Source: Gammaproteobacteria bacterium (GTDB lineage: Bacteria > Pseudomonadota > Gammaproteobacteria > Poriferisulfidales > Poriferisulfidaceae). Taken from it: 64,000 nt of DNA. Location of the stretch: NCBI GenBank assembly GCA_026713705.1, contig JAPONY010000081.1:431-64430 (forward strand), read 5' to 3'. The translations under genes were made by a program, and so were the position numbers. This document shows, in pieces, positions 8,694-32,510 of this stretch. Numbering within the stretch: position 1 is the first letter of the stretch; every line of letters starts with the position of its first letter. Under the pieces are notes generated by a model that was not told the DNA's origin, ran no database searches, and saw only the letters and a program-made list of their open reading frames with translations.

Positions 8694-9212
8694 TCACTCG
8701 AAGGGCGGCCAAGCCCATTGCAGCAAAGCCTGCCGCTGGCGCGGACGGCAGGCGAGATCGCCCGGATCACAGTTCTTCCGGATCTGCGCCGCATGACGCA
8801 CGATGCCTTTCCATCTGCGAATCTGGGCCGCATCCACCACCGGGTCGCGCCGACCCAGGGAATAGCGGCAGTACCACTGGAACCAGCCGCGCGGGTCGTC
8901 GCCGATGATCCAGCCCTTCTCCCGCCAGACCCCAAGCGGCTGCCGCGACTTGATGCCGAAATAGTTAATTCCGGGATCCGGCTCCTCGCTCAGTTTCGCG
9001 CCGCGATACCAACTGGCGGGAAATTCCGAGCGGCAGTCGTTCAGGTACTTCCCCTCGAACACGCCGTGCGCCAGCATTTCCTTCGGTGTGAAATGCGGAG
9101 TGAATCCGTCTGCAAAATCCCGTCCTGCCCGCGCTTCCAGCAGGTAGCGGTAATCCGGCTGCATTTTGTCGTGCACCTCGACCCAGACGCCGGGGGCGTA
9201 TTTCCGGGACAT
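8694..9212 (-). CDS. conserved hypothetical protein (172 aa)
   Basis: Protein-like ORF with 'GWFQWYCRYSLGRRD'. The block looks familiar from widespread uncharacterised proteins, but I cannot name the family. Confidence 0.55.
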   Translation of the reverse strand: MSRKYAPGVWVEVHDKMQPDYRYLLEARAGRDFADGFTPHFTPKEMLAHGVFEGKYLNDCRSEFPASWYRGAKLSEEPDPGINYFGIKSRQPLGVWREKGWIIGDDPRGWFQWYCRYSLGRRDPVVDAAQIRRWKGIVRHAAQIRKNCDPGDLACRPRQRQALLQWAWPPFE

Positions 9213-9294
9213 GTCCGTGTCGGGTTTTCAGCGGTCCGCGGCCGATAGATTCCGGGTTGCGGGCTTCAAGTCCACCGAATCAGCGAAAGGGAGA

Positions 9295-9717
9295 TCAGCC
9301 GGCAACCCGCAGGGTCACGTCCACGCCCACCAGACCGGATTTTCCCAAGATCTCATCCGGCACCTTCACCTTGATCTGGGAGACATCCAGATCCTCGATC
9401 TTTCCGGAATCGACGTGGTACAGGTGATGGTGCGGCGCCAGATTGGTGTCGTAGATGCGCGAGCGGTCGCCCAGGTTCAACTCCTGGAGCAATCCTTTCT
9501 CGACGAACAGCTCCAGCGTGTTGTAGACCGTGCTGCGGGAAATCGAGGTGTCGCTCGCCTGCACCCGGCGGAACAACTCCGATGCCTCCATGTGCTGCCG
9601 GCAGGTAAACAGGATAGCGCTGATCGCGACGCGCTGGCGGGTCGGCGTGATGCCGTGCGCACGCAACAGGGCCGCCGCTTCGTCGACGTTGGAGATTGGG
9701 ACTGATTCCAATTCCAT
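9295..9717 (-). CDS. Fur-family transcriptional regulator (Irr-like, no CxxC)
   Basis: 'GITPTRQRVAISAILF...HMEASELFRRV......ISRSTVYNTLELFVEKGLL' winged helix plus a 'HHHLYH' metal/heme-type His cluster. The C-terminal CxxC pairs are absent. Confidence 0.85.
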   Translation of the reverse strand: MELESVPISNVDEAAALLRAHGITPTRQRVAISAILFTCRQHMEASELFRRVQASDTSISRSTVYNTLELFVEKGLLQELNLGDRSRIYDTNLAPHHHLYHVDSGKIEDLDVSQIKVKVPDEILGKSGLVGVDVTLRVAG

Positions 9718-9875
9718 GCCGCCATTGTACTCCTGATTCGTCCTGCTGCCCGTAAGACCTCCCGCCTCATGAAAAGCGGGAGAATTCTAAGCTGGAGGAA
9801 ACAATAAAATTTATGTATATTCAATCATTTACTGAAATGAATCGTCTAAACACCAAAACGCAGAGGGATTGGGAC

Positions 9876-9912
9876 TATAATAGCGCGCCCAAATAAAATC
9901 ACGATTATTTGG
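9876..9912 (+). promoter_or_regulatory. candidate -10 box (TATAAT) and perfect 8-bp inverted repeat upstream of the Panacea antitoxin gene
   Basis: TATAAT at 9876-9881. CCAAATAA (9889-9896) and TTATTTGG (9905-9912) are separated by 8 nt. This is either an operator or a 5'-UTR hairpin. No convincing -35 box. Confidence 0.35.
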
Positions 9913-9932
9913 ATTTGTTAGGGGGAAAAATA

Positions 9933-10370
9933 ATGGGCGTACAGGCGATTGATGTAGCCGACTACATTCTTAAAAATCTTGGCACAATGCCCGCCATGAA
10001 ACTCCATAAGCTTGTCTATTATTCTCAGGCTTGGTCTCTTGTGTGGGATGACAAGCCCATTTTCCATGACCGGATTGAAGCATGGGCAAATGGCCCGGTT
10101 ATCCGGGCCTTGTATAACAAACACAAAGGAAGATTTCGCATAGGCAGCATTAAGGGTGCCGAATGGAAATTGCTGAACTCTGAACAGCGCGAAACCATTG
10201 ATGCTGTTCTCGATCACTATGGTGACAAATCTTCACAGTGGCTCAGTGATTTGACTCACATGGAGGCCCCGTGGCAAGAAGCACGAGCAAAAGCGAGTCT
10301 TGCCAGTGGACAACGTGGAAACGCATGCATCACTCATGCATCTATGGCTGAATACTACTCTGCTTTGTAA
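9933..10370 (+). CDS. Panacea-domain (DUF4065, SocA-like) antitoxin
   Basis: Start at ATG 9933 (GGGGGA SD). 'MKLHKLVYYSQAWSLVWDDKPIFHDRIEAWANGPVIRALY' is the DUF4065 signature as I recall it. Confidence 0.75.
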   Translation: MGVQAIDVADYILKNLGTMPAMKLHKLVYYSQAWSLVWDDKPIFHDRIEAWANGPVIRALYNKHKGRFRIGSIKGAEWKLLNSEQRETIDAVLDHYGDKSSQWLSDLTHMEAPWQEARAKASLASGQRGNACITHASMAEYYSAL

Positions 10371-10474
10371 CGCAACTTGGGCAGGAAGCCAGCCAAGAAA
10401 TTATCCAAATCATCCGAACTCCCCCATCCCACTAAAAAGCAAAGAGTGGCGGGGATTCGGGCAAAGAAGGTCAT

Positions 10475-10819
10475 TTGTCCTGGAGATTCAGTGCGTGTGA
10501 CAAGAACGGTCCTTGGCCTTGGCTGAAACTATCAGACCCAAAAACATACCAGCGTGTAATTAAGAAATTGTCAGATTTTGAACAAATGAACCCAGAGCAA
10601 ATCAAGAATACCGGGAGTCACCCTATTGGTGTTTATAAGATTGTGAAAGGCGCTAGAGATCGCCTTCAGCAACTTCGTAAAGATGATGTTGATGAACTTT
10701 ACTCGTTTCGAATTTCTAGCAGAGAAAGGGTCTGGTGCATAAGGAAGCAGAATGTTATGGAGGTCTTGTGGTGGGACCCAGAGCACAGCGTATACCCAAC
10801 ACAACCTGGCAATACCTAG
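10475..10819 (+). CDS. putative toxin partner of the Panacea antitoxin (unclassified; RelE/ParE-like C-terminal pattern)
   Basis: 114 aa from TTG 10475; the first ATG would give 78 aa. '[35 protein letters not shown]' resembles the beta-strand core of RelE/ParE-like toxins. It starts 105 nt after the antitoxin stop. Confidence 0.45.
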
Positions 10820-11025
10820 ACGGCTCACACCGTCAACTTCCTGTATGCAATAGTCTCGCCGATCATCGCCCGGGTCGGGTCGCCACTATTAGTGCTTGCA
10901 TGCCATTCGCGGATTTTTCAGCCCGGTGGACTCCCTGGAGAAAGAATTCCCGCGCCATATATCCTAAAATGCGGGAAGTTATTGACTTTCCGGCCTGCTG
11001 TGCCGGGGAAATCCGACCGCCTCCC

Positions 11026-12999
11026 ATGCCTGCCTGCTCGACCGCCTCTTCTCCTCAAGCCCAGATATTCCCCGTGCCTGACGCGACAGCGAAAGCGGCA
11101 CTGATCGACCGGGCCGGCTATCTCGAGAACTACCGCCGCTCGATCGAGGACCCGGAAGGATTCTGGCTGGAACACGGCCGAAGGCTTGATTGGATCCGGC
11201 CCTACACGCACATCCGGGACGTCTCCTACGATGCGCCCGACCTGCACGTCCGCTGGTTCTACGACGGCAGCCTGAACGCCTGTTACAACTGCGTGGACCG
11301 CCATCTCGAATCGCGGGGAGACCAGGTCGCCATCCTTTGGGAAGGCGATGAACCGGACCGAGACAAAGCCATCACCTACCGGGAACTGCATCAACAGGTC
11401 TGCCGCTTCGCCAACGGGCTCAAGGCGGCCGGGGCTCAAAAAGGCGACCGGATCACCATCTACATGCCGATGATCCCGGAGGCGGCCGTAGCCATGCTGG
11501 CGTGTGCGCGGATCGGCGCCATCCACTCCGTGGTGTTCGGCGGCTTCTCGCCTGAAGCGCTGGCGGGACGCATCCGCGACGCCGACAGCAGCATGGTCAT
11601 CACGGCCGACGAGGGCGTACGCGGCGGCAAGCGGATTCCGCTCAAGGCGAACGCCGATCAGGCCGTCGAAGCCTGTCCCTCGGTCAAACACGTCGTGGTC
11701 GTCCGCCACACCGGCGCGGAGATCGCGTGGAGCGAAAGTCGCGACCTTTGGGCGCACGACCTGGCCGCGCAGGTCGACGACGACTGCCCCCCGGAAGAAA
11801 TGGCCGCGGAAGACCCGCTGTTCATCCTCTACACCTCGGGCTCCACCGGCAAGCCAAAAGGCGTGCTGCACACTACCGGCGGCTACCTGGTTTACGCCTC
11901 GATGACCCACCAGTACGTGTTCGACTATCACGAAGGCGAGATCTACTGGTGCACGGCCGACGTCGGCTGGGTGACCGGGCACAGCTACATCGTGTACGGC
12001 CCGCTGGCCAACGGCGCCACCACCCTGATGTTCGAAGGCGTACCGAATTACCCGGATGCCTCCCGTTTCTGGCAGGTCTGCGACAAGCACCAGGTCTCCC
12101 TTTTCTACACCGCGCCCACGGCCATCCGCGCACTGATGCGCGAGGGCGAGGAGCCGGTGCGCCGGACTTCTCGCAAAACACTCCGCGTGCTCGGCACGGT
12201 CGGCGAACCGATCAACCCGGAAGCCTGGCTGTTCTACCACCAGGTCATCGGCGACGGCCGCTGCCCGGTGATGGACACCTGGTGGCAAACCGAGACGGGC
12301 GGAATCATGATCACTCCCCTGCCTGGCGTTACGGATCTGAAGCCGGGCTCCGCGACCCGCCCCTTTTTCGGGATTCGCCCGATCCTCGTGGACGCCGAGG
12401 GAAATGAAATAGAAGACGCCGGCGAAGGCAACCTGTGCATCGCGGACAGCTGGCCCGGGCAGATGCGCACGGTCTACGGCGACCACCAGCGATTCATCGA
12501 CACGTATTTCGCCACCTATCCCGGACGCTACTTCACCGGCGACGGCGCCCGCCGGGACGAAGACGGCGACTACTGGATTACCGGCCGAGTCGACGACGTG
12601 ATCAACGTCTCGGGGCACCGCATGGGCACCGCCGAGGTGGAGTCGGCCCTGGTCGCGCATCCACAGGTGGCGGAGGCGGCCGTGGTAGGCTTCCCCCATG
12701 AAATCAAAGGGCAAGGGATCTATGCCTATGTCACGCTGATGGCCGGACTGGTCCCGGACAAGGAGCTGCGGGATACCCTGAGCGCATGGGTGCGCCAACA
12801 GATCGGGCCGATCGCGCGGCCGGACTTCATCCAGTGGGCGCCGGGGCTGCCGAAGACCCGTTCCGGCAAGATCATGCGCCGGATCCTTCGCAAGATCGCG
12901 GCCGACGACTACGCGGAACTGGGCGACACCTCGACGCTGGCCGACCCGGCCGTGGTCGACGACCTGATCGAGAACCGCATGAACCGGGCTTCCGCATGA
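11026..12999 (+). CDS. acs: acetyl-CoA synthetase
   Basis: '[19 protein letters not shown]', 'WWQTETGG', C-terminal '[18 protein letters not shown]'. Start taken at ATG 11026 (657 aa); the longer ORF from 10735 overlaps the upstream toxin gene. Confidence 0.95.
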
Positions 13000-21250: not shown

Positions 21251-21940
21251 CTATCCTTTCTTCCCGATCGGAGACAGATTCTCCAAACGCGTCAGCCATT
21301 CGTTGAAGTGATGGCATTCTGCACGAATGCGATCCAGTCCGACCCGGCGGGCGATGGCAATGCCGTGAACCACCTTGTTATAGGGCGGATGCGATAGAGA
21401 TTTAAGCCGAGCCGAAGGGTGGGTCGCCGGACCGTCATCGATATGTTCGGGACTTTGGGCGCCACGCCGGGCTCGTTGCATCTCTTCCGAATGCCCGGAC
21501 CACATGTCCTCCGTCTCGGCGATCTTCGTGGCATCGGAAAACAGCAGCGCTTCAAATTCATACGGCTGTATGTGTGGGAAAAAGCGGTCCGCCCGACACT
21601 CCGCCGCCTGGACGACCACCCTGCGGAACTCGGCCTCGATGGCGGCAGCACGGTCAAGCGGGTCGCGTCGCAAAGCAGATTCGGCCCGGCCTGGGAAATC
21701 CGACGGCAATCCGTACAGGTCGAACAAAGTGGTGACGTAGGTGTCCTTACGGCCGCGCAAAAGCGACCGAAGCGACCGCAGCACCCGCTGACGGGTCAAG
21801 GCACCACCCGCATGTCCCGAAGAAGTCGCGATCAGTCTCGGTTTGACAAGCACGGACCGGTCCAGCATGGGGTGGTAGAGAATTTCGTTCAGGAACGCTT
21901 CTTCGGTCCGGCCTTCGCAAACAGCGATCACCTCGATCAT
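21251..21940 (-). CDS. DUF4276-like (Toprim-like) protein
   Basis: Start taken at ATG 21940, which forms an ATGA overlap with the upstream ATPase stop. The N-terminus '[21 protein letters not shown]' matches the DUF4276 'EG.TE' signature as I recall it. Confidence 0.65.
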
Positions 21941-23034
21941 CGGCTCAGGCAACCGCCGAAAGTATTCATTTTCCACAAATCACCCAAGGTGTATTCATCC
22001 TCTTCCAGCCAGACCTGCAAATCTTCCCTATTCAGCCGGTCGAACAAGGACTCTCCATTCTCGCGGTTGACCACGACGATGTCTTCAGGGTCCATCTCGC
22101 TGACAAGATCCGCGGACTGTGTTGTGACGATGATTTGCCGAGTTTCACTCGTGCTTTTGAGCATGTCGGCCACCAAGGCGATTGCACGCGGATGGAGGCT
22201 CAACTCCGGCTCGTCGATGAGCATCAGTCCGGGCGCGAAATGATCCGGCTGGAGCAACACGGTCGCCAGTCCAATGAAACGCAATGTCCCGTCCGAGAGT
22301 TGCCGCGGTCCAAGCGTCATTTTGGAATTCCCTGCATGAAGCCATTCCAGTTCCACGTATTCTTCCTTGCCTTCGCGATAGATGAAGTCTTCCAGAAAAG
22401 GGGCTACATGCCGCGTCATGGTGATGATCTGCCGGTAATGGTTCGGATATCTTTCGTTCAGATGCCGCAGAAATGGAACCAGATTGCTTGCATCCGAATG
22501 CAATTCGAGGTTGTCGCGAGTCTCTCCCGCGCTCCGCATTCCCGATTCCCTGCTGGTATCGCTCAGGTGATACGAGCGCCAGCCCGCGACAGCCTCCCGT
22601 AAGTAGCCGGAAAAGCCATCCTCTTCCCGTGCACCAATCTCTTCAAGCCTCGATTCGTCATGGCCTCCGCCAAGCGAATGGGCGACGGAGTCCCTTTCGT
22701 CCAGAGTTCTTGCTTCCTCTTCCTTGAAAACAAGGCGTTCACCATCCGGCACGAGAACAAACCGATAGGCGTTCTTGCCGAATGTGATCTGTACCTCGAT
22801 CTCCCGGGTGGCGTTCACTCCATCGTGCAGAATGGTTTTGGGCCTGTTGCCCAGAGCGACAAACATCTGAAGGCGCTTCTCGGCCACGCACCTCAACATC
22901 CGGAACAGGTCGATGAAATTGCTCTTGCCCGCCCCGGCGGGACCGATCAGGACATTCAGGGGCCTCAACTCGAATTCTTCGAGGGCACGGATGGACTTGA
23001 AGCCGCGGATGGTGAGGTGGGTCAGTTGAGGCAT
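21937..23034 (-). CDS. ABC/SMC-like AAA ATPase (AAA_21/AAA_23 type)
   Basis: 'LTIRGFKSIRALEEFELRPLNVLIGPAGAGKSNFIDL' (Walker A) and 'LMLIDEPELSLHP' (Walker B/D-loop). Confidence 0.85.
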   Translation of the reverse strand: MPQLTHLTIRGFKSIRALEEFELRPLNVLIGPAGAGKSNFIDLFRMLRCVAEKRLQMFVALGNRPKTILHDGVNATREIEVQITFGKNAYRFVLVPDGERLVFKEEEARTLDERDSVAHSLGGGHDESRLEEIGAREEDGFSGYLREAVAGWRSYHLSDTSRESGMRSAGETRDNLELHSDASNLVPFLRHLNERYPNHYRQIITMTRHVAPFLEDFIYREGKEEYVELEWLHAGNSKMTLGPRQLSDGTLRFIGLATVLLQPDHFAPGLMLIDEPELSLHPRAIALVADMLKSTSETRQIIVTTQSADLVSEMDPEDIVVVNRENGESLFDRLNREDLQVWLEEDEYTLGDLWKMNTFGGCLSR

Positions 23035-23046
23035 AGTGGCAAAAAA

Positions 23047-24525
23047 TTAGGTTTTGTCTTCTAGTGAATCATCTTCGAGACCACTGTAGAGTAATTCTAA
23101 ACACTGCACCGAATGCACAAACCCGATTCCAGTCCTATATGGGGTTGTGGTTCTTTCCAGCAAACCGTCAACATAATAGATCACATCTTCTGCCCGGGGC
23201 GCATCAGGGAAATCTGGTGTTGCGCCCTTTTCCGCGGATTGAGCCCATATTCTGTACTTCTTCATAAGCGGCGTTTCGATTTCATCATCACGAGAGCCTG
23301 AAACTTCGTAACAAGCAAGAACGACCACTGCTTCAAACAAGTTGCTTTTTTTCTCTTCCCTAATATCGTTTGCCCCTGAACGAGAAAACACCGCATCAAC
23401 GACTTGCTCGTCCGAAGCCTCTCCCCGGATAAACCTATGGTACAGATCGGCATTGATTGTCCTAAGGATTAAAGCCACGACCGCCGCCATAGCAGCTAAT
23501 CGATGTTTGCCCCGTAGCGAGGCAAGCACCAATCCAAGACGGTGAATGGCCTGTGCGATGCGTCGAAGACTAAGGTCGGAGGATTTAAAGAAAACCTGAA
23601 AAAAAGTAAGGGCATCTTCATAGTTCCACATCTCACTCCTTTGGGTTCGCTGAAAATAGTCAGGAACACATGCTGCTCTAAGCGACACATCGATAAATGT
23701 GTCACGTTCTGGCTCAGGAAGCTGAAAGTCAATGTCGAAAAAACGGCGCAAGTAGTCTTCCGCATCAAATCCACTGCCGTACAACCCCTTGATTGAATGT
23801 CCCAATTGGTCACGATTGATTGCTAGAACAAACACCACGTGATCTACTGAAAACAAGTGCTTGGCAACTTCCAAGAGTTCAACTGCATAAGAGGGGCGGC
23901 ATCTGTCCAACTCGTCTATCATTATTACGAGGGGGTGTTCGCGTTCTTCCGACAATACTTTCGCCATATCCTCCAAGACGACTCTAAACTCCTTGACCGA
24001 CTCCTGAGCTTTTTCATAAACCGACAGCCTGTCTTCAGCATAGGAAGTAAGAATTTGAGCCACCTCCTCCTTTAGCAACGGCGCGACATCCAAAAGACCC
24101 ATGGCGGCCCGAATTAAACCAGGGGTGACCCATCGAACGATTTCCGTTGCCACCTTTTTAGTTTCGTTGATCTTTTGGGTCAGGTCGGTCTTTTCCCCCG
24201 GTGGGCTAGTTGTATATTCCTGCAGCCCTTTCATCAGTTCTGCGGAAAGGGTTACTAATGGCTCATTGGAAAAATCCGTTTCCCATGCATTGAACTTGAC
24301 CAAAGGAAATTTCCGATTGAGCAAATGCTGTGCCCACATATTAAGGAATGTGGTTTTTCCGTTTCCCCATGCGGCATCGACAGCCAAAACGCAGGGGCCC
24401 TCAAATACATCAATCAGGCGAGTGAGCACCTCTGCCGATTCTTTTCGCCCAAGAAGATCGTTTTGGAATGGATCGTCTTGCGGCACATCAATTTCTCGAG
24501 GCTGTATGCGTATTGCCTTACCCAT
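23047..24525 (-). CDS. KAP-family P-loop NTPase
   Basis: 'DDPFQNDLLGRKESAEVLTRLI', Walker A 'AAWGNGKTTFLNM', Walker B 'LVIMIDELDRCRP'. I see no strong transmembrane insert. Confidence 0.85.
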   Translation of the reverse strand: MGKAIRIQPREIDVPQDDPFQNDLLGRKESAEVLTRLIDVFEGPCVLAVDAAWGNGKTTFLNMWAQHLLNRKFPLVKFNAWETDFSNEPLVTLSAELMKGLQEYTTSPPGEKTDLTQKINETKKVATEIVRWVTPGLIRAAMGLLDVAPLLKEEVAQILTSYAEDRLSVYEKAQESVKEFRVVLEDMAKVLSEEREHPLVIMIDELDRCRPSYAVELLEVAKHLFSVDHVVFVLAINRDQLGHSIKGLYGSGFDAEDYLRRFFDIDFQLPEPERDTFIDVSLRAACVPDYFQRTQRSEMWNYEDALTFFQVFFKSSDLSLRRIAQAIHRLGLVLASLRGKHRLAAMAAVVALILRTINADLYHRFIRGEASDEQVVDAVFSRSGANDIREEKKSNLFEAVVVLACYEVSGSRDDEIETPLMKKYRIWAQSAEKGATPDFPDAPRAEDVIYYVDGLLERTTTPYRTGIGFVHSVQCLELLYSGLEDDSLEDKT

Positions 24526-24536
24526 TTTTCAACTCG

Positions 24537-26123
24537 TCAAATTGTTGTGCCGGGGCGCCCAATACCTTTCGTCTGAATTTTCCCAGAAACAAGTCCAGGC
24601 AATAGCGTATCTCTCAAAAAGGATAAGAGGTGGGTTTCTGATGTGCCATTCCTGATACGTTTATCCAATGTATTGACTTGACTGTCGAACGCGTTAATAA
24701 CTTCTGCCGTAGGTTCCAGAACTCGAAGCGCTTCAAATTGTTGCTTGTTTATTGATCCAAACACTGTTCCCGTGTGTTCGTATTGGCGAAACTGCTTCTG
24801 GATAGCCCACGCCGAATAATATGTGAACGAAACTGAGCCAGATCTATGTCGTAAAGCTGCTACTCCACGGCCAATACAACATTTTTCCCAAGCCATGTTT
24901 ATATCTCCTACCGGGGCTCTAACACTGACGAGCGTGTCTCCCGGCTGAGCGGTTCGCTTGGGGGCAGTACAAAATTTCCTTTTCTGGGGAAACCTGAACT
25001 CAAAATCAGAACTTCCCTGAAAGAAAGGCAAGCCATCAGCGTGTTCGTTGTAGGTGTTCCCAGAAGGGGATTGCCCCATCTCAAGATCAAAGGTATCGGC
25101 AAGATTTCGAATGCCCCACCCCTCCGGGACATCCCCTAGCTCAGATTCCGCTAACCGGTCAGGGAAAAGATTGGCAATGTGCTTTGGCAATCCTGTATCG
25201 CGGTTTTCCATTTTTGCGCGAACCGGATCAAAATCAACGAACCAGGATTTGAACAACGCCCGAGCCATTTCTTCCAAGGTTTCGTTCATGCGGCAGTTTA
25301 ATTCAATCTTATCGTCCAGCGTACCCAGTACATCTGCAATGGCACGTTGTTCAATTAGGGAAGGCAGGCGTATACGAATACTCCCTAATGCTGACCCTGA
25401 AAGTTCACCGAATGTCGTCCCTGTTGTGTATTGTTTTAATTTCTCAGTGTTTTGAATAAGCCAATAATACAGGTATTCAGACGGAAATCCTTCATGCGGC
25501 ACAAGTGAACGAAAGCCTTGGTTAGTAGAAATTGGATTCTTTGCGATAGCCACATAACCAACTGGCGCTCGGGTAGAAAGCAGTACAGATCCGCTCGGCA
25601 AAAGTTTTGCTGAAGAATTTTCTAGCCCTTTTTGTGACAGGCTTCTCTCTCCGCAAGTGATATATCGGGCATGTGGTTCAGACAGGTCTTTCGGCGTCAA
25701 CCACGGAATGTTCCCCCCAAAGTTATCTGGATCTTTCGTCGAAGGAGTGCCTCCCCCTACGATATCGGCAATTTGCTCGATTGTGTATTCATCCCAATCG
25801 TTTTCTTTTTCGGAAGAATCTACTAAATTTATGCGTTCTCCCTCAATCTGCTCTCTAAACGATTCCGGGACCTCGTCCCAGACGAACAAATCCACCCTGA
25901 ACGGCAAGTCGCTTTCCTCGAACGCTTCCCGGAGGTCGCCAACCCGGTCTTTCTGTTCTGGAGACGCAAACGCCACCAAATCAAGGTCGGATTGCGGACG
26001 GGAAGTCCATTTCACGCGGGAACCATAGGCCCAGACGGCCACCCCCGGCAGATACTGTTGAATTAAAGCCAGAACAGTCTTGCGCTGGCTAGATGTAATG
26101 TCGATGGCCTGCTCTATTCCCAT
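24537..26123 (-). CDS. hsdS: fusion protein: minimal nucleotidyltransferase (MNT) domain + type I R-M specificity subunit HsdS
   Basis: Start at ATG 26123 (GGGGAG SD). Residues 1-~105 carry 'GS-x10-DLD' and 'VDLFVWDE' (MNT). An uninterrupted frame then runs into a two-TRD HsdS: 'IVGGGTPSTKD', central 'LPSLIEQRAIADVLGTLDDKIELN', distal 'LLSFLRDTLLPGLVSG'. Confidence 0.85.
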   Translation of the reverse strand: MGIEQAIDITSSQRKTVLALIQQYLPGVAVWAYGSRVKWTSRPQSDLDLVAFASPEQKDRVGDLREAFEESDLPFRVDLFVWDEVPESFREQIEGERINLVDSSEKENDWDEYTIEQIADIVGGGTPSTKDPDNFGGNIPWLTPKDLSEPHARYITCGERSLSQKGLENSSAKLLPSGSVLLSTRAPVGYVAIAKNPISTNQGFRSLVPHEGFPSEYLYYWLIQNTEKLKQYTTGTTFGELSGSALGSIRIRLPSLIEQRAIADVLGTLDDKIELNCRMNETLEEMARALFKSWFVDFDPVRAKMENRDTGLPKHIANLFPDRLAESELGDVPEGWGIRNLADTFDLEMGQSPSGNTYNEHADGLPFFQGSSDFEFRFPQKRKFCTAPKRTAQPGDTLVSVRAPVGDINMAWEKCCIGRGVAALRHRSGSVSFTYYSAWAIQKQFRQYEHTGTVFGSINKQQFEALRVLEPTAEVINAFDSQVNTLDKRIRNGTSETHLLSFLRDTLLPGLVSGKIQTKGIGRPGTTI

Positions 26124-26530
26124 GTCTCCCCGCTCATGGCCTGATAGAGTCCGATGGCATCGTCGATAAAATCGGGTATCAATTCCAAGCAGGCTTTTGC
26201 CTTCTTGCCATCGTAGTCGTGCGAGGTGTCGACGCGGGCTTTGACATAGCGAAACCATTGCTCTATCGGAGCAGCGAACAAGCCGTTCTCGCAAGCTGAT
26301 CTGAAAAGAGGCTTCGGACTGTTGGGTAGATCCGCCATGCCCATCTCTTCAACCAAGTACCGTTTCAGCACTTTCCACAGGCAGTCATAGCAAACCTCAA
26401 ACCGCTGAATGACCGATTCGGCCACGGCATCGCGCACCAAGGCTGGCAACTCCGGGTCCAACCCCAAGTGGTTTTCATGCTGTTCCTCCAGGCGCTTCAA
26501 GGATGACCGGAATTTTGAGAAATCAATCAT
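26114..26530 (-). CDS. HEPN-domain protein (HI0074-type nucleotidyltransferase substrate-binding subunit; putative RNase toxin)
   Basis: 138 aa, helical, with the Rx4H motif 'RVDTSH'. It overlaps the MNT-HsdS start by 10 nt. Confidence 0.8.
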   Translation of the reverse strand: MIDFSKFRSSLKRLEEQHENHLGLDPELPALVRDAVAESVIQRFEVCYDCLWKVLKRYLVEEMGMADLPNSPKPLFRSACENGLFAAPIEQWFRYVKARVDTSHDYDGKKAKACLELIPDFIDDAIGLYQAMSGETWE

Positions 26531-26569: not shown

Positions 26570-26815
26570 TCAGTTGGATGCCCGAAGGAGCGCGAGAGCG
26601 CTCACCGCATCATCGGCAATCGACGCATCTTTATTCTGCGGAGAAAACTCTTGATGCCGCCCTTCCCAACTATAGGCTGCACGATCCAACTGTACCCGAA
26701 CCACCTTTGCGCGCTCCGACGACACATCATCGAAACCGTTCTCGTAGCCCTGCACAACCACCCGTAGTTCCGGCGGATAGCCTTCAAGAAGGCGAATGAG
26801 TTCCTCGACAGTCAT
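26570..26815 (-). CDS. small hypothetical protein (81 aa)
   Basis: The internal ATG 26815 of ORF 26570..27076 forms an ATGA overlap with the hsdM stop. Begins '[27 protein letters not shown]'. No family recognised. Confidence 0.5.
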
Positions 26816-28428
26816 TTGCCACCATACCCCAGCGCCTTCATGTTGTCTGCGATGCGGGCATCCAGTTTTGCAGACTCTGCTTGCTGTTCCTGCAACTGTG
26901 CGACTAGCCGGTCCATTTTCTGCTCGAACGGCTCGTCGTCTTCCTCCGGCTCTTCCCATCCAACATAACGGCCAGGGGTAAGTATTCCATCGTGCTTGCC
27001 CACTTCGTCCAGCGATGCACTCTTGCAAAAACCGGGGATATCGACGTAACCGTTCTCCTTCTCCTTGCCGCGCCAAGCATGGTAGGTGCCTGCAATGCGC
27101 GCAATGTCTTCCTCGGCGAAATCCCGATGGGTGCGATCCACCATGTAACCCAGTTTCCGTGCGTCGATGAAAAGGATCTCGCCCCGCCGGTCGCGGAACC
27201 TGCCATTGCTGCGATCACGGGCCAGAAACCACAGGCACGCCGGGATCTGGGTCGAGTAGAAGAGTTGGCCCGGCAGCGCGATCATGCAATCCACCAGATC
27301 CGCTTCTATCAAACCCCTGCGAATGGCGCTCTCCGCTGATTGACCTGACGACATCGATCCGTTGGCCAACACGAAGCCCGACATGCCGGTCGGGCTCAGA
27401 TGATGGACGATGTGCTGCACCCAGGCAAAATTGGCGTTCCCTTTAGGGGGGATGCCGTATTTCCATCGCTTGTCGTCCGTCAGGCGCTCGCCTCCCCAGT
27501 CGGAGATGTTGAACGGCGGATTGGCCAGAATGAAGTCGGCCTTGAGACCAGGGTGCTGATCGTCGTGGAAGCAGTCTCCCTGGGAGATCTGGCCTTCAAT
27601 GCCGCGGATCGCCAGATTCATCTTCGCGAGACGCCAGGTCGTGTAGTTCAACTCCTGCCCATAGACCGCAATGTCCGCCTTGGCGCCGCGAGGCGTTTTC
27701 CCTCCATTGCCGTTTCCGGTCGCATGGGCGCGTATGAACTCGACCGACTGCACGAACATGCCCGACGAGCCGCAGCAGGGATCATAGACGCGGCCCCGGT
27801 AGGGCTCCAACATCTCCACCAGCAACTTCACGATGCAGCGCGGAGTATAGAACTCACCACCTCTCTTGCCTTCGGCGCTTGCGAACTGGGACAGAAAATA
27901 TTCGTAAATCCGCCCCAGCACGTCACGGGACCGGGCGTTTTCGTCACCCACCTTGATGTTGCCGATCAGGTCGATGACCTGACCCAGCCTTTGCTTGTCG
28001 AGAGATTCGCGCGCATAGTCCTTGGGGAGCACGTTCTTGAGCGACGTATTCTCCCGCTCGATGGCATCCATCGCATCATCGACATGCTTGCCGATCTCGG
28101 GTTGCCGCGCCCGCTCCTGAAGGTATGGCCAGCGCGACTCCCGCGGCACCCAAAAAATATTTTCCGCCACATATTCGTCGCGGTCTTCCGGGTCATGGCC
28201 TTCCGATTCCTTGTCTTTCAGGAATGCGCGCTTCTCCTCGAATGCGTCGGACACGTACTTGAGGAAGATCAGACCGAGCACCACGTGCTTGTACTCGGAC
28301 GCATCCATGCTGCCCCGCAAGGCATTGGCCATGTCCCACAGCTCGGCCTCATGGCCGATCACCGCGCCATTATTCTCCCGGCTCTTCGCCGAACCCTGTC
28401 GCTTCTTTTCCGGCTGCTTCCGCGCCAT
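26812..28428 (-). CDS. hsdM: type I restriction-modification system, M subunit (N6-adenine DNA methyltransferase)
   Basis: Start at ATG 28428 (AAGGAG SD). '[32 protein letters not shown]' (HsdM N-terminal domain), motif I 'DPCCGSSGM', motif IV 'NPPF'. Confidence 0.95.
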
Positions 28429-28505
28429 GGTCGGATTCTCCTTTCGCGTAAGGATCGATGGCGGATGCGTTGTAGCCGACGGCATGCATCCACCATCCTT
28501 TGCAT

Positions 28506-28597: not shown

Positions 28598-29809
28598 TCA
28601 TCGCGGCCTGAGCCAATCGGCCACGGGTCTCAGCAAAAACGTTTCCAGATCGATGCCCCCTTCTCCGATCAGCAGTTTGCGGGTTGGCTTGAAAAGTCTG
28701 GAGAAAGCTGTCATGCCTGCCCGAGCGCCAGATGGGCGCCCACTTTTCACCTCAATGGCAATCAAGTGGTCTCCCGACTGGATGATGAAATCGACTTCCC
28801 GGCCCTGTTCGCGCCAATAATGAATGACACAATCGCCGGAGAGGGCCGCATTAATCAGGTGGGTGCCGACCGCCGACTCGACCAAGTGCCCCCAGAATTC
28901 CGAATCCCCGCGGGCCTTGGAAAAGGAGATGTTCTTTTGCGCCGTAATCAGCGCAGTGTTGAAAACCTGGAGTTTCGGGCTTGACGCTCTTTGCCTTATC
29001 CGGGTTCCCGCGTACTTCGCCAATCCCGACACCAGGCCAGCGCCCGCCAACAGATCAAGGTAATAGGCCAGCGTGGTCGTATTGCCGGCATCCTGCAACT
29101 GGCCCAGCATCTTGTTGTAGGAAAGGATTTGCCCGGAGTAGGCGCAACCCAATTCAAGCACCCTGCGGAGTAATGCCGGCTTGTTCACCCGCGACAGCAA
29201 CAGCACATCGCGTGAAATAGTCGGCTCAATCAGCGAATCGCGAACGTAGCGAGCCCATCGGGTCGGCTGTTTTATCAGGCGTGCCGCACCGGGATAGGCT
29301 CCGTAAAAAACGTATTGTTCCAAAGACCACCCGAACACTTCACGCATCTCCACGAAACTCCAGTGTGGAAGATGTGAGACTTCGAAGCGGCCAGCCAAGC
29401 TCTCGCCCAAGCCACGCTGGACGAGAAGCGGGGCTGAACCAAGCAGAACGACCTTCAGGGATCTGCCCACATGCGTGTCGGCGTCCCAGTATGCTTTCAC
29501 CGCCTCGGACCAACCCGTGACTTTTTGCACCTCATCAAGAATAAGAAGTGCGCCATTTCGGTCTGCCTCATCGGCAAGCAGGCGAGCAGCCTCCCACTGC
29601 TGCCCAATCCATGAGATGTCGCGAAGAACCGGTTGATCAGCACTAGCATAGTGCATGGGCAACCCCGACCGGTCAGCCACCTGTTTGACGAGGGTCGTCT
29701 TTCCAACCTGCCGCGCACCCGAAAGGACTTGGATAAAACCACGGGGCTCCACCAAGCGCTGGATAAGATCTTCAGCCTGAGGGCGTACGTAATCTGGCAA
29801 ATTACTCAT
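28598..29809 (-). CDS. AAA ATPase with C-terminal DUF4143 domain (COG1373-like)
   Basis: 'VLSGARQVGKTTLVKQV' Walker A and 'LLILDEVQ' Walker B; a C-terminal nuclease-like DUF4143 region ('EVDFIIQSGDHLIAIEVK'). Confidence 0.8.
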   Translation of the reverse strand: MSNLPDYVRPQAEDLIQRLVEPRGFIQVLSGARQVGKTTLVKQVADRSGLPMHYASADQPVLRDISWIGQQWEAARLLADEADRNGALLILDEVQKVTGWSEAVKAYWDADTHVGRSLKVVLLGSAPLLVQRGLGESLAGRFEVSHLPHWSFVEMREVFGWSLEQYVFYGAYPGAARLIKQPTRWARYVRDSLIEPTISRDVLLLSRVNKPALLRRVLELGCAYSGQILSYNKMLGQLQDAGNTTTLAYYLDLLAGAGLVSGLAKYAGTRIRQRASSPKLQVFNTALITAQKNISFSKARGDSEFWGHLVESAVGTHLINAALSGDCVIHYWREQGREVDFIIQSGDHLIAIEVKSGRPSGARAGMTAFSRLFKPTRKLLIGEGGIDLETFLLRPVADWLRPR

Positions 29810-29830: not shown

Positions 29831-29981
29831 TTTTATTGGGTGAATCAACCCCTCGCGGACAACAGCGAGGCGTTCGCCAAGGCGAGCTAGCCGACCCCCT
29901 CATCTTTCGGAAACCGGCTTTCGGCACGACATTATGAACAATCCCGCCCACACTTGCGGTAAACTCCGCCCACATGCACCA

Positions 29982-30740
29982 ATGCAGGGATATATTTTGA
30001 CGTCTTCCATCGCTTGTCCGCCCACCCAGCAAACCCCGCACAAGAAAGGCTTGGCGGCGGCCATATCGCTCGCAAGTCTGGCTTTGTTGCTCCAAGGCTG
30101 CGCCACCTTGTCGGAGAATGAATGCGAGACGGCGGACTGGTGGCTCATCGGTCAGGAAGACGGATCCAAAGGCCTGTCTCTTGCCCACATCGAGGAACAC
30201 CGGGAATCCTGCGCAGAGCATGGGGTGACGCCCGACCGCGATGCCTATGCCAAAGGCCACCGCAGCGGCCTGGCGGTCTACTGCACCCGGTTCACCGGCT
30301 ACAAGGTCGGCCGAAGCGGCCGGCCCTACCATGGAATCTGCGACGGCCCGCTGGCGGAAGCGTTCGACCCCGGGCTTCGCAGGGGGCGGATGGTGCACGC
30401 GCTGGAGACGAAAGCCTGGGACATCAAGCAGAAACGAGAAAGTCTAGGGGAGAAGATCGGGCGGCTGGAACATGAGCGGAAGACGCTGCAGGAGAAACTC
30501 GCGGCGGACGAAAGCATCCCCCAGGACCTAGAAAGCATGGCGGAGAAGGTCGTGGAGCTCGGCCAGGAACTGGAAGTGCTGAAGCAGGAATACGAAGACT
30601 CGGCCCAGACGCAGGCCGATGCCGTGGCGCGGTTCGACGAAGCGATCGAACAGGCACGGGACGATGGCTACGCCGACGACGGCGAGCTACTCGGCGGAAC
30701 GCGGCGGATCATCCGGTCCTTGAAGGACGAGTTGGACTAA
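29982..30740 (+). CDS. DUF2799-like lipoprotein with C-terminal coiled coil
   Basis: Start taken at ATG 29982. Lipobox 'LLLQGC', 'CETADWWLIGQEDGSKG...YC...GYKVGRSGRPYHGIC', then an acidic heptad-rich tail. Confidence 0.65.
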   Translation: MQGYILTSSIACPPTQQTPHKKGLAAAISLASLALLLQGCATLSENECETADWWLIGQEDGSKGLSLAHIEEHRESCAEHGVTPDRDAYAKGHRSGLAVYCTRFTGYKVGRSGRPYHGICDGPLAEAFDPGLRRGRMVHALETKAWDIKQKRESLGEKIGRLEHERKTLQEKLAADESIPQDLESMAEKVVELGQELEVLKQEYEDSAQTQADAVARFDEAIEQARDDGYADDGELLGGTRRIIRSLKDELD

Positions 30741-30873: not shown

Positions 30874-31635
30874 ATGAACGAGAGGGCGCACACCCTGATG
30901 CTTTCCGCTTCTTGTTCGCCCCCTCAACAGACTTGGCCGAAGAAAGGCTTGGCAGCCGTCATATTGCTCGCAAGTGCGGCTTTATTGCTCCAAGGTTGCG
31001 CCACCCTGTCGGAAGATGAATGTTTGGCGGCAGACTGGTGGATTATCGGGCACAAGGATGGGTCCGAAGGCGAGCCTTTTGCCCTTCTTGCGGAACACCA
31101 TGAAGCCTGCGCAGAACATGGGATAAAACCCGACCGCACCGCCTACGCAGAAGGCCGACAAAGCGGGCTGCAAACATATTGCTCACGGTTCAACGGCTAC
31201 AGAGTCGGCCGAAATAACAGCCGTTACCGCGGGGTCTGCACGGGTCCGCTGAAAGAATCATTTCTGGCAGGGTTTCGCAGAGGGAAAGAAGTGCGCGAAA
31301 TGGAGATGGCCGTGTGGGCCATCAAGCAAGATCGGCGGAAGCTCAGGAAGAAAATCCGCAAGCTGGAAGAAAAACTGGAAGCGCAGCGCGCGAGGTTCGA
31401 GTCGGACGAGAGCAGTCCCGACGACCGGGAAGACGCCTGGGCGAGAATCGGGGAATTCGAATACGAACTGGAGAAGCTGGACCTGGAGTACGAAGAATCG
31501 GGAACAAGACAAGCCGATGTCCTGCTCCGGCTCGAAGAAGCAACCGGGCGGGCGAGAAATGATGGATATTCAGATGATGGCGGGTATCTCCAGACGTATC
31601 GGGATCTCAAGGATTTGGGGGACGCGTTCGACTGA
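30874..31635 (+). CDS. DUF2799-like lipoprotein, tandem paralog
   Basis: Same architecture and lipobox 'LLLQGC' ('CLAADWWIIGHKDGSEG'). Nucleotide-level similarity to the upstream copy is visible around the signal peptide. An alternative start lies at 30898. Confidence 0.65.
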   Translation: MNERAHTLMLSASCSPPQQTWPKKGLAAVILLASAALLLQGCATLSEDECLAADWWIIGHKDGSEGEPFALLAEHHEACAEHGIKPDRTAYAEGRQSGLQTYCSRFNGYRVGRNNSRYRGVCTGPLKESFLAGFRRGKEVREMEMAVWAIKQDRRKLRKKIRKLEEKLEAQRARFESDESSPDDREDAWARIGEFEYELEKLDLEYEESGTRQADVLLRLEEATGRARNDGYSDDGGYLQTYRDLKDLGDAFD

Positions 31636-31932: not shown

Positions 31933-32307
31933 CTATTGATGGGGAAAATACTTGACGTTCGTCAAATCCTTGAAGTCGGCATCCTGCGTCCACAGCGTGG
32001 CCTCATGCCTGCGTGCGGTCGCATAAATGATGCTGTCCGCCAAAGGCAATTGGTATTCGATTCCGAAAACGGCGGCATCCACTGCCAGCCTTTCGTCCAG
32101 GACGACAACCCTCCCCTGCTCCATATGCGCAATAGCTCGCAGGGCGGCCTCCTCTCCTCTTTGGCGCTGGATATTCTTGAACACCTCAGTCAGGGTGATG
32201 CTGGGAACCAGCAGTTCCCCCAGACTGCCTATGGGAGCCGCAAAGGATTGCGCGTTCGGGCCGTCGGCAAAGTAGGACAACCAACCGGACGAGTCGACTA
32301 CGTTCAC
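31933..32307 (-). CDS. vapC: PIN-domain ribonuclease toxin VapC
   Basis: 'VVDSSGWL' N-terminal acidic motif, 'LADSIIYATA' and 'TQDADF' PIN residues. 4-nt overlap with the upstream antitoxin gene. Confidence 0.85.
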   Translation of the reverse strand: MNVVDSSGWLSYFADGPNAQSFAAPIGSLGELLVPSITLTEVFKNIQRQRGEEAALRAIAHMEQGRVVVLDERLAVDAAVFGIEYQLPLADSIIYATARRHEATLWTQDADFKDLTNVKYFPHQ

Positions 32308-32510
32308 AGGCGATCTTCATCCCGCTCTACATGGGTGTCGATGCCTTTCAGAAATCCCCTCAGGTTCTCCAGCGGCTCTATGGGAATCAATTGTATCTGG
32401 TCGCGGCAACGGATCATCTGGATTTTCTGTCCCGGCACGATCCCGCTCGACTCTCGGATTTTTTTAGGAATCACAATCTGATATTTTGGCGAAACGGTGA
32501 CGGTGGCCAT
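32304..32510 (-). CDS. vapB: AbrB/SpoVT-family antitoxin VapB
   Basis: 'VTVSPKYQIVIPKKIRESSGIVPGQKIQM' swapped-hairpin motif; AGGAG SD. Confidence 0.85.
   Translation of the reverse strand: MATVTVSPKYQIVIPKKIRESSGIVPGQKIQMIRCRDQIQLIPIEPLENLRGFLKGIDTHVERDEDRL

Follow-up and report, generated by a model that had tools for sequence, protein, structure and literature searches.

A HEPN-associated nucleotidyltransferase domain fused to the specificity subunit in a widespread lineage of type I restriction-modification systems

Introduction

Class I HEPN/MNT toxin–antitoxin (TA) systems, also known as type VII, are defined by neighbouring genes for a minimal nucleotidyltransferase (MNT) with a GSX10DXD motif and a HEPN protein with an RX4HXY motif, and the definition explicitly includes PF08780/PF01909 pairs (PMC7641770). 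The MNT poly-AMPylates the tyrosine of the HEPN motif, which blocks the RNase (PMC7641770). In Legionella pneumophila, a short MNT without helix α4 accompanies a 139-amino acid (aa) PF08780-type HEPN whose tyrosine is AMPylated, and each HEPN tetramer is bound by a single MNT monomer, which uses helix α2 and the α2-β3 loop and not its C-terminus (PMC11586414). HEPN domains linked to restriction-modification (R-M) systems have been predicted to act as PrrC-like back-ups (PMC3710099, PMC3632139) and are fused to nucleases, helicases and ATPases, not to methylases (PMC3710099). Here, we describe a type I R-M operon in which an MNT domain forms the N-terminus of the specificity subunit HsdS, directly downstream of a HEPN gene. 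The operon lies in a 64,000-nucleotide stretch of contig JAPONY010000081.1 from a gammaproteobacterium (the window, to which all coordinates refer unless stated otherwise).

The closest solved relatives of both partners are HI0073/HI0074 of Haemophilus influenzae (1NO5, 1JOG) and the Legionella pair (8XDJ/8XEO/8XEH; PMC11586414), in which the MNT poly-AMPylates the tyrosine and binds the HEPN tetramer in a 1:4 ratio. The locus described here has in common with them an MNT of about 100 aa that lacks the long C-terminal helix α4 and a PF08780-type HEPN with RX4HXY. Whereas the MNTs of HI0073/HI0074 and Legionella are free-standing, the MNT is here the N-terminal domain of HsdS. Also unlike in these pairs, the HEPN gene comes first, the two reading frames overlap and the module forms part of a type I hsd operon; the usual order of HEPN/MNT pairs is MNT-first (PMC3710099). 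HepT/MntA of Shewanella oneidensis (PMC7641770) shares GSX10DXD and RX4HXY with the present pair, and tyrosine AMPylation beside the RNase site would be expected here as well. However, HepT belongs to PF01934 (DUF86) instead of PF08780, and MntA has the extra α4 helix, is free-standing and is encoded by the first gene of its pair.

PrrC is an anticodon nuclease that the type Ic enzyme EcoprrI keeps latent. Its gene and that of our HEPN both lie within a type I hsd locus. In PrrC, an ABC ATPase is fused to HEPN, there is no antitoxin and silencing occurs by non-covalent association, whereas the locus in the window encodes a 138-aa single-domain HEPN and an enzymatic antitoxin candidate. Moreover, the partner joined to the R-M system is here the antitoxin candidate, through its fusion to HsdS, and not the toxin. 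As the HEPN protein has no ABC ATPase domain (PF08780 only), it does not belong to the PrrC family and is at most a functional analogue. To our knowledge, PrrC/EcoprrI is the sole worked example of a coupling between restriction and suicide or dormancy.

Results and Discussion

MNT and HsdS form one continuous protein

The fused gene (MNT::hsdS) is an uninterrupted open reading frame (ORF) of 528 aa on the minus strand that starts with an ATG at 26123 and stops at 24537. Residues ~14-105 of its product match Polbeta/NTP_transf_2 (PF18765 at aa 28-105; PF01909), and two Methylase_S stretches extend from aa 108 to 528. The catalytic signature of the MNT consists of G34-S35-RVKWTSRPQS-D46-L-D48 (GSX10DXD) and D78 (VDLF). 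G34, S35, D46, D48 and D78 are each at least 95% conserved in 64 fused proteins, and GSX10DXD is exact in 62 of 63 fused orthologues. The domain resembles HI0073 (1NO5) in sequence (E 8.8e-18) as well as in fold (TM score 0.86, root-mean-square deviation 2.0 Å). It scored 35.4 bits against the NCBIfam MntA equivalog NF047752, which does not reach the cutoff of 60, and is thus an HI0073-like short MNT and no MntA orthologue.

The linker between the two parts (aa 101-112, ~10 residues of it flexible) is in frame and without a stop, and its length and sequence vary among homologues. The AlphaFold2 (AF2) model of the fusion is confident overall (predicted local distance difference test, pLDDT, 90.7), and residues 103-107, between two confident domains, are its sole low-confidence stretch (pLDDT below 50). 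In the HsdS part, AF2 places long helices at 256-296 and 473-513, and Foldseek identified 1YF2 (E 1e-31) as well as 5YBB, 2Y7C and 7VRU as structural relatives. The HsdS part is a regular type I specificity subunit with two target recognition domains (TRDs).

Sequence inspection near the junction revealed no in-frame ATG, GTG or TTG from which a separate complete HsdS could be made. We therefore rejected translation of HsdS from an internal start, and conclude that HsdS is made only as the fusion. An alternative 585-aa ORF with a TTG start is an upstream extension without support from homologues or from the genes called on identical contigs. Among fused orthologues, TRD1 is highly diverse and is flanked by the conserved MNT and the conserved central helix. 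Such diversity would be expected if the fused proteins are functional, diversifying specificity subunits that swap recognition domains. Together with the lack of another hsdS start, it suggests that the fused HsdS assembles with HsdM and HsdR and directs sequence-specific methylation and restriction.

The HEPN gene overlaps the fused gene

The protein encoded directly upstream belongs to PF08780 (NTase_sub_bind, E 2.7e-24) and to the HI0074 family TIGR01987 (61.7 bits, cutoff 55.8), and its solved relatives by sequence are HI0074 (1JOG, E 2.7e-9) and the Legionella HEPN toxin (8XDJ, E 1e-4); PADLOC gave no match for it. Its RX4H RNase motif is extended to RX4HXY (R99-VDTS-H104-D-Y106). R99, H104, D105 and Y106 are at least 95% conserved among 59 HEPN orthologues, as is the pair Q42..E45, the counterpart of the metal site proposed for the Legionella toxin. 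In the closest genomic loci (described below), RX4HXY is kept in 56 of 58 intact HEPNs. GSX10DXD in the MNT, a PF08780 HEPN with RX4HXY and the adjacency of the two genes together make up the sequence definition of a class I (type VII) pair.

The stop codon of the HEPN gene (TAG, 26116-26114) lies inside MNT::hsdS, whose ATG occupies 26123-26121. The overlap is alike in nearly all related loci (in locus coordinates, the HEPN ends at 7007 plus the stop and the MNT starts at 7001) and measures 8 nt or 4 nt in divergent relatives. Translational coupling of the two genes is therefore probable. In the original prediction, which was made from the nucleotide sequence, a 138-aa HEPN ORF with an RVDTSH motif was said to overlap by 10 nt a 528-aa ORF in which an MNT signature runs unbroken into a two-TRD HsdS, and the two genes were read as a TA-type pair. 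The coordinates, motifs and domain matches given here and in Table 1 bear this out. The same source took GGGGAG as a Shine-Dalgarno sequence. The hexamer is indeed present at 26131-26126; however, it ends only 2 nt before the ATG, which makes classical initiation no more likely than coupling through the overlap.

The fused design is widespread and conserved

A trivial explanation of the fusion would be that MNT and hsdS are separate genes, joined by a sequencing or assembly error that removed a stop or caused a frameshift. We give it a negligible probability. At least 20 contigs encode the identical 528-aa product. They belong to ENA, JGI and Logan assemblies made from different samples with different pipelines and assemblers, and the locus was always the same, with hsdM, an 81-aa ORF, HEPN, the fusion, a KAP NTPase, an AAA_21/DUF4276 pair and hsdR as its genes. 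As these contigs were assembled independently, an artefact is excluded; the fusion is moreover conserved in 63 of 80 related genomes and in a finished plasmid sequence of Zymomonas mobilis. The junction thus passes the check for a frameshift or lost stop that the original prediction had called for. Its second check, on recurrence, was positive: fusions recur in other genomes, and homologues are not always split.

We searched 5.8 billion proteins with the full-length fusion and examined the best 120 matches. MNT is N-terminal to HsdS in 101 of these (494-770 aa), and the remaining 19 are HsdS proteins without MNT (421-445 aa). Many of the fused homologues come from NCBI genomes, where they are labelled merely 'restriction endonuclease subunit S'. 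An exhaustive HMMER search of 1.84 billion cluster representatives (50% identity) with the MNT domain alone yielded 2875 matches at E <= 1e-3, of which 151 reached E <= 1e-30; among the top 150 representatives, 92 have a length of 450 aa or more. A query consisting of the 175-aa N-terminus had returned mostly truncated ORFs (170-307 aa) with contig ends or frameshifted tails, which suggested that the fusions are hsdS remnants. This reading was overturned by the full-length search and by the genomic loci, in which complete fusions are the norm.

A genomic scan with an MNT alignment, covering one genome per GTDB species, gave 357 loci, of which we inspected the best 80 (L009-L088) with flanks of 7 kb. 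Counting a locus as fused if the MNT frame continues for at least 450 codons into HsdS, 63 of these 80 closest loci are fused. Within the flanks, hsdM is found upstream in 59 fused loci and hsdR downstream in 37, and the conserved synteny is hsdM-HEPN-MNT::hsdS-(cargo)-hsdR. According to their record titles, the 80 loci span about ten phylum- or class-level groups; Acidobacteriota, Gamma- and Alphaproteobacteria, Rhodothermales, Opitutales, Nitrospira, Latescibacterota, Binatia, Spirochaetia, Planctomycetota and Tectimicrobiota are named. A divergent MNT subclade (35-45% identity) also has the order hsdM-HEPN(PF08780)-MNT::hsdS with an 8-nt overlap, for example in a 2.7-Mb metagenome-assembled genome, a Sulfuricurvum sp. 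and a Deltaproteobacterium, each with different cargo before hsdR. In the cultured Z. mobilis ATCC 10988, plasmid pZMOB01 (L095/L098) carries a compact four-gene operon, hsdM-HEPN-MNT::hsdS-hsdR, whose 527-aa fusion (WP_014466389.1) and HEPN (WP_014466388.1) contain GSX10DXD and RX4HXY, respectively. We also considered the well-studied plasmid system HsdRMSp of Z. mobilis ZM4 (PMC8432527) as a source of experimental data. The HsdS of its plasmid pZM32 is an ordinary protein of 420 aa without HEPN/MNT, so that these data are not applicable; of the two plasmids, only pZMOB01 of ATCC 10988 carries the fusion.

Over 38 loci, the pairwise identity matrices of MNT, HEPN and HsdM are correlated (r = 0.58, 0.61 and 0.47; Mantel p = 0.001). 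This indicates that the module travels and diverges with the R-M genes instead of being re-inserted repeatedly. MNT::HsdS is thus a conserved, widespread and apparently unstudied architecture. Far from being rare or unique, the fused state prevails in a large R-M lineage and occurs in hundreds of genomes.

Several variants of the fused design were observed. Some fusions (P0188, P0124; loci L019, L027, L065, L075, L085) carry a Vsr-like endonuclease domain of ~100 aa (DUF559, PF04480/PF18741) between TRD1 and TRD2 and reach a total of 680-770 aa. Tandem MNT-MNT-HsdS proteins occur as well (P0136, P0185, P0190, P0209; loci L067, L075); their long N-terminal extensions are a second MNT and not a HEPN. 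No natural HEPN-MNT-HsdS triple fusion, from which the complex could have been modelled as a single chain, was found. In seven loci (L017, L020, L023, L024, L030, L044, L062), a second, more divergent and free-standing HEPN->MNT pair lies between hsdM and the fused gene. Locus L059 contains an ORF of 1877 codons (7001-12631) in which MNT::HsdS is followed by ~1250 residues without a Pfam match.

We found no description of an MNT-HsdS fusion in the literature covered, to which most subscription journals do not belong, nor any mention of one in the text of PMC3710099, PMC3632139, PMC2701414, the BREX survey PMC12839542 or PMC13000451, a 2026 paper on fused MNT-HEPN proteins. This agrees with the original prediction, whose author knew of no characterised example. 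The fusion is therefore present in the databases yet unrecognised and uncharacterised, while the general idea of coupling is not new.

Split forms and the origin of the fusion

Two Acetobacter plasmids (A. ascendens LMG 1591 and A. oryzoeni B6) carry the order hsdM-HEPN(HI0074)-MNT-hsdS-hsdR. The gene order is the same as in the window, and MNT and HsdS are separate proteins. In A. oryzoeni B6, MNT and hsdS are in different frames. In A. ascendens LMG 1591 (L097, 3402-4964), they share one frame and are parted by a single stop and four codons (…SIFLE*DIQKM…), which means that one substitution makes or breaks the fusion. In a crude neighbour-joining tree of MNT domains, fused forms are found in several clades, interleaved with free or split relatives that include HI0073. 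As a tree without support values, it gives only a hint that fusion or fission occurred more than once.

Some members of the same R-M lineage lack the module: in loci L089 and L090, hsdM directly overlaps hsdS. In L091, a classical MntA->HepT pair of the DUF86 type lies between hsdM and hsdS as an unfused passenger. It has the MNT-first order, unlike the module in the window, and does not border on hsdS; in this lineage, TA genes are frequent cargo between hsdM and hsdS. From these relatives, the split forms and the tree, a likely history is that a HEPN->MNT cassette in toxin-first order was placed immediately before hsdS, that the MNT stop was then lost and that the fused state became dominant.

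A possible abortive-infection back-up to restriction

The idea that best fits the conserved fusion is that restriction is coupled to a suicide or dormancy effector. We tentatively prefer the view that a class I (type VII) HEPN/MNT TA pair has been built into a type I R-M operon as an abortive-infection back-up, with the antitoxin tethered to the M2S/R2M2S complex. HEPN and MNT::HsdS would be translated from overlapping, coupled frames. As HsdS exists only in its fused form, every M2S1 methylase and R2M2S1 endonuclease would bear one MNT, on a flexible tether next to TRD1. The tethered MNT would AMPylate Tyr106 beside the RX4H RNase site of the HEPN oligomer and render it inactive, and neutralisation of the toxin would be tied to continued synthesis and integrity of the R-M core. 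If a phage shut off host expression, or disabled or occupied M2S, newly made HEPN could escape modification and cleave RNA, and the resulting growth arrest or abortive infection would form a second line behind restriction. Of this account, AMPylation, docking of the HEPN onto the complex, the nature of the trigger and the role in defence are inferred; a PrrC-like contribution to abortive infection is plausible. Since the Legionella MNT binds its HEPN through helix α2 and the α2-β3 loop, the C-terminus of the MNT would be free for HsdS, and binding should not be blocked. By the same comparison, one MNT per M2S1 may be enough stoichiometrically.

A more specific version, which we consider possible but doubtful, is that the tethered MNT acts as a sensor. 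Its activity would require an M2S core that is both intact and free; DNA-mimicking anti-restriction proteins of the Ocr/ArdA type, or other attacks of a phage on the complex, would then stop AMPylation, and fresh HEPN would arrest the cell.

A number of observations weigh against a back-up role. The original prediction proposed simple release of the HEPN as the trigger, which does not hold: neutralisation in this TA class is covalent (PMC7641770, PMC11586414), so that dissociation alone cannot activate the HEPN and a trigger must hit MNT activity or the supply of toxin. No de-AMPylase or trigger was identified. The HEPN is encoded upstream and co-translated, which makes it difficult to see how toxin could escape the MNT unmodified. 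Relatives such as L089 and L090 do without the module, and in L091 a TA pair is present without being fused. The correlation between the identity matrices would also follow from simple physical linkage during horizontal transfer. Furthermore, an intact HEPN directly upstream is missing from 17 of the 63 fused loci, one of which lies at a contig end, and MNT::HsdS has been retained nonetheless, as expected if the fusion is kept as the sole start of hsdS. This retention and the single substitution that separates split from fused forms speak for neutrality.

In the HEPN-less loci that we inspected, a 3' remnant of the HEPN gene is still recognisable before the MNT start. In L025, an internal deletion joins IDYDKSQQSLKRLEEQH to GLYQIMSGETWD, and in L051, L056, L088, L063, L057 and L018 only the last 7-17 codons are left. 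Four further HEPNs are split, either by real frameshifts or by errors of long-read sequencing. The MNT motif is intact in all HEPN-less or split loci. Repeated deletion of the HEPN beside an intact MNT::HsdS is the asymmetric decay expected of a costly toxin. As the HEPN is lost in about a quarter of fused loci, it is accessory to R-M function and not required for it.

In three loci of Candidatus Versatilivorator/Versatilivoraceae (L058, L061, L077), a HicA/HicB-like pair, assigned by eye, occupies the position of the HEPN (~6520-6960). Here, the fusion of antitoxin and HsdS appears to have been retained while a different toxin module replaced the HEPN in front of it.

Alternatively, the fusion may be a frozen accident, in which a HEPN->MNT cassette landed directly upstream of hsdS, a stop codon was lost and the resulting fusion was tolerated. 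The TA pair would then be an ordinary passenger uncoupled from the R-M complex, and the fusion would have persisted by descent and horizontal transfer, holding the only start codon of hsdS. In line with such an accident are the retention of the fusion after HEPN loss, the single in-frame stop in A. ascendens (E*DIQKM), the unconserved linker and the free-standing TA pairs that are common cargo in this R-M lineage. We nevertheless regard it as unlikely. Fusion is the dominant state among the 80 closest loci, where a clean re-split into two adjacent intact genes is essentially unseen, and fusions in several MNT clades of the crude tree suggest that the state was fixed repeatedly. The MNT catalytic site is intact in all fusions but one, and the loci adhere strictly to the reversed gene order with its overlap. 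That fusion is dominant and recurrent, and that the overlap is so strictly conserved, speaks mildly against pure neutrality.

Selection could also have favoured the fusion for a reason other than defence. With the TA pair welded to hsdS, an R-M cassette could neither lose or inactivate its specificity gene nor be displaced without releasing the HEPN; the benefit would fall to the cassette as a selfish, horizontally moving unit, with no sensing of phage. Type I systems are by themselves poor at post-segregational killing, which counts in favour of such an addiction function. The module is co-inherited with HsdM at roughly 70% identity across about ten phylum- or class-level groups, which indicates transfer as a unit, and the loci lie in defence islands, on plasmids or on integrative elements. 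The toxin-first order and coupled translation would also make it dangerous to disrupt the start of MNT::hsdS. However, AMPylated HEPN stays inactive after gene loss (PMC7641770), so that this TA class would not be expected to cause classical post-segregational killing. A nonsense or frameshift mutation downstream of the MNT would abolish HsdS without freeing the toxin, truncated ORFs of MNT and partial HsdS do exist (P0105, L064, L013), and the HEPN is easily lost. Addiction is in our view as unlikely an explanation as a frozen accident. We consider it very unlikely that the tethered MNT has been repurposed to modify another target, such as an R-M subunit, DNA ends or a phage protein, with the HEPN as its substrate-binding partner. 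This was the original reading of HI0073/HI0074 and lives on in the name 'nucleotidyltransferase substrate binding protein'; tandem MNT-MNT-HsdS variants and the catalytic motif retained in HEPN-less loci are in line with it. Yet HEPN losses look recent, with remnants still recognisable, and motif retention after loss thus says little. The full RX4HXY motif, which is at once RNase site and acceptor, is present in nearly all intact HEPNs (56 of 58), and all characterised class I pairs are TA systems that act through tyrosine AMPylation (PMC7641770, PMC11586414).

Genomic context

The genes of the operon are all on the minus strand, in the order hsdM, orf81, HEPN, MNT::hsdS, three cargo genes and hsdR (Table 1). 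Both hsdM and hsdR are full length and on the same strand as the fused hsdS, which makes this one complete type I locus. The longest ORF of hsdM encodes 557 aa, whereas gene callers on identical contigs start it at 538 aa; the best solved relative of its product is 3KHK (E 2.5e-142). The hsdR product matches EcoR124I HsdR with E 8e-32. Between hsdM and HEPN, orf81 occupies the same place in ~45 of the 80 related loci, HEPN-less loci included, and is missing from the divergent MNT subclade and from MNT-less relatives. It has no Pfam or PADLOC match, only 11 close homologues and 'hypothetical protein' as its sole source name, and its AF2 model is unreliable (pLDDT 50).

Table 1. Position and assignment of the hsd operon genes, parts of the fused gene and the adjacent upstream gene in the window.
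Feature	Position	Strand	Assignment or evidence
AAA_14/DUF4143 ATPase, directly upstream of hsdM	28598-29809	-	PADLOC PDC-S01
hsdM	26812-28485	-	PF12161 HsdM_N + PF02384 N6_Mtase, E 2e-102
orf81 (81 aa)	26570-26815	-	called on identical contigs; 4-nt overlap with hsdM stop
HEPN toxin candidate, 138 aa	26114-26530	-	PF08780, TIGR01987
HEPN stop / MNT::hsdS start overlap, 10 nt	26114-26123	-	sequence ATGGGAATAG
MNT domain, aa 1-100 of fusion	25824-26123	-	PF18765 / PF01909
MNT-HsdS linker, aa 101-112, VDSSEKENDWDE	25788-25823	-	sequence, AF2
HsdS proper: TRD1, central conserved helix, TRD2, C-terminal helix	24537-25787	-	two PF01420 stretches, E 6e-40; PADLOC Specificity_I
KAP-family P-loop NTPase, cargo, defence candidate	23047-24525	-	PF07693 E 1e-38; PADLOC PDC-S20 E 4e-119
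AAA_21 ATPase, cargo	21937-23034	-	PF13304; PADLOC HEC-01A E 5e-119
DUF4276, cargo, paired with AAA_21	21251-21976	-	PF14103; PADLOC HEC-01B E 5e-71
hsdR, 1053 aa	18085-21246	-	HSDR_N, SWI2_SNF2, ResIII, T1R_D3-like, T1RH-like_C

With its KAP NTPase, AAA_21 and DUF4276 genes and the neighbouring AAA_14/DUF4143 gene, the hsd operon is a defence island. A promoter and terminator scan gave counts not above the shuffled expectation; the sole promoter-like site (10/12) lies upstream of hsdM (28535-28506) and was not used as evidence. At the position of the cargo genes, related loci carry SIR2, a reverse transcriptase or a pair of an OLD-like TOPRIM ATPase and a UvrD-family helicase, which is Gabija-like by domain content.

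Beside the island, two tandem paralogues on the plus strand (29934-30740 and 30874-31635; 268 and 253 aa) belong to DUF2799 (PF10973) and have lipoprotein-like N-termini. They are followed on the minus strand by a pair that resembles VapBC-type modules (31933-32510), in which a 68-aa AbrB/SpoVT-like ORF (32304-32510) overlaps a 124-aa ORF (31933-32307). The AbrB-like fold of the former was read from its sequence only, and identical contigs label the adjacent cut gene as PIN (PF01850).

Conclusions

A coupling between restriction and suicide or dormancy was predicted by comparative genomics more than a decade ago; in the lineage described here, a physical link is written into the gene. An antitoxin-type enzyme from a well-understood TA class has become a covalent part of the subunit that nucleates the R-M complex. 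Current annotation files the fusions as 'restriction endonuclease subunit S' and the adjacent toxin candidate as 'nucleotidyltransferase substrate binding protein', and TA and defence-system finders consequently miss the module. Natural fused and split versions exist on plasmids of cultured Alphaproteobacteria (Zymomonas and Acetobacter, respectively), which makes the coupling hypothesis directly testable. If the tethered MNT does sense the state of the M2S core, the system would amount to a modular, antitoxin-tethered equivalent of PrrC that has spread over numerous bacterial phyla, and would directly illustrate, at the level of mechanism, the proposed coupling of immunity and suicide.

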